Origin: a virus
Reading direction: 5' to 3' (one strand)
IMG/VR virus record: IMGVR_UViG_3300017917_001151
Coordinates: 1 to 64,000 of that record
Length of the DNA stretch: 64,000 nt
The DNA itself: not shown here
Text below: a report on this DNA, generated by a model with database tools, continued

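Follow-up and report, generated by a model that had tools for sequence, protein, structure and literature searches.

Proteins g36 and g45 in the right part of the island

Two proteins encoded in the right part of the island are unusual in sequence. The model of g36 has a protein-kinase fold, and invariant H-P-S-S-Y and N-Y-F-F motifs occupy the places of the kinase HRD and DFG motifs, respectively; its paralog g13 has kept the Asp of the DFG-like place. g36 may be a pseudokinase with an adaptor role. The second, g45, covers only positions 169–330 of the 384 in the AMP-binding domain. Its length is the same in three related loci (73–80% identity), so g45 seems less like a pseudogene than like an adenylating enzyme in split or minimal form.

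Features of the island and of its surroundings in the phage record, and comparison loci
Feature	Location	Strand	Remarks
Fe-S operon	window 21648-22887	minus	IscA-type Fe-S carrier, IscU scaffold, Fe/Mn superoxide dismutase
Sugar/pterin-type genes	window 24210-26523	minus	Kdo-8-phosphate synthase, phrog GT-like gene, PTPS/QueD-like gene
tRNA-like sequence	window 35746-35857	minus	between minus-strand gene and g01
Exact TATAAATA boxes	window 47223, 62086; record 64551, 70367
g13	window 47904-48578		g36 paralog
g36	record 65710-66393		just past window edge; confident protein-kinase-fold model
g45	record 72543-73205		220 aa; AMP-binding domain match, middle part only
Release-factor-like gene	record 77940-78443		near tRNA array; GGQ motif; read by eye
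IF-1-like gene	record 78666-78962		near tRNA array; read by eye
Peptide deformylase-like gene	record 79286-79723		near tRNA array; read by eye
Ten tRNA genes	L003:16281-19997		array
GOLLD RNA	L003:19601-19987 = record 82452-82838		179.6 bits (gathering score 150)
GTP cyclohydrolase I genes	G002 80453-80980; G003 100428-100592		records behind loci L071 and L081
Ralstonia phage RsoM2USA	203354-232544		locus L164; cultured, 344-kb phage
Campylobacter phage CP21	6801-31620		locus L245

Expression signals and the island's edges

The four exact TATAAATA boxes end only 2–17 nt ahead of the start codons, so the transcripts would be leaderless or nearly so. At the left edge of the island, the tRNA-like sequence has the look of an acceptor stem and T-arm with an encoded CCA, and ARAGORN made no call there; the ORF tabled at 35079-35582 seems to have its true start further upstream, near 35725. 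Beyond the right edge, the GOLLD RNA overlaps the end of the tRNA array.

Cofactor supply and sugar/pterin-type genes

The phage provisions its many Fe-S enzymes from its own IscA-type/IscU/superoxide dismutase operon, which perhaps also protects them. The Kdo-8-phosphate synthase match exceeds the curated cut-off; the gene adjoins the phrog GT-like and PTPS/QueD-like genes. No preQ1-type leader was reported ahead of the neighboring PTPS/QueD-like gene by Rfam at the gathering threshold. In two distant records that carry the island, GTP cyclohydrolase I genes are found about 8–9 kb past the fibre gene of g46 type. A g25-like (2OG-oxygenase-fold) domain is fused to a Rieske and ring-hydroxylating oxygenase in the 625-aa metagenomic protein P0371, known from a single 3-kb contig; this fusion may be a gene-calling artefact.

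Island-type genes in known phages

Campylobacter phage CP21 has several radical SAM genes, including a pair that match paralog family A over their full length. Around them lie genes annotated as tail fibres, a gp5-like baseplate hub gene and a gene for PTPS. In RsoM2USA a giant gene of 7.6 kb has two island-like genes downstream: a radical SAM gene like those with an N-terminal twitch domain (RsoM2USA_349) and a g02-like gene (RsoM2USA_347). These genes are all annotated as hypothetical, and this cultured phage is a possible bench handle.
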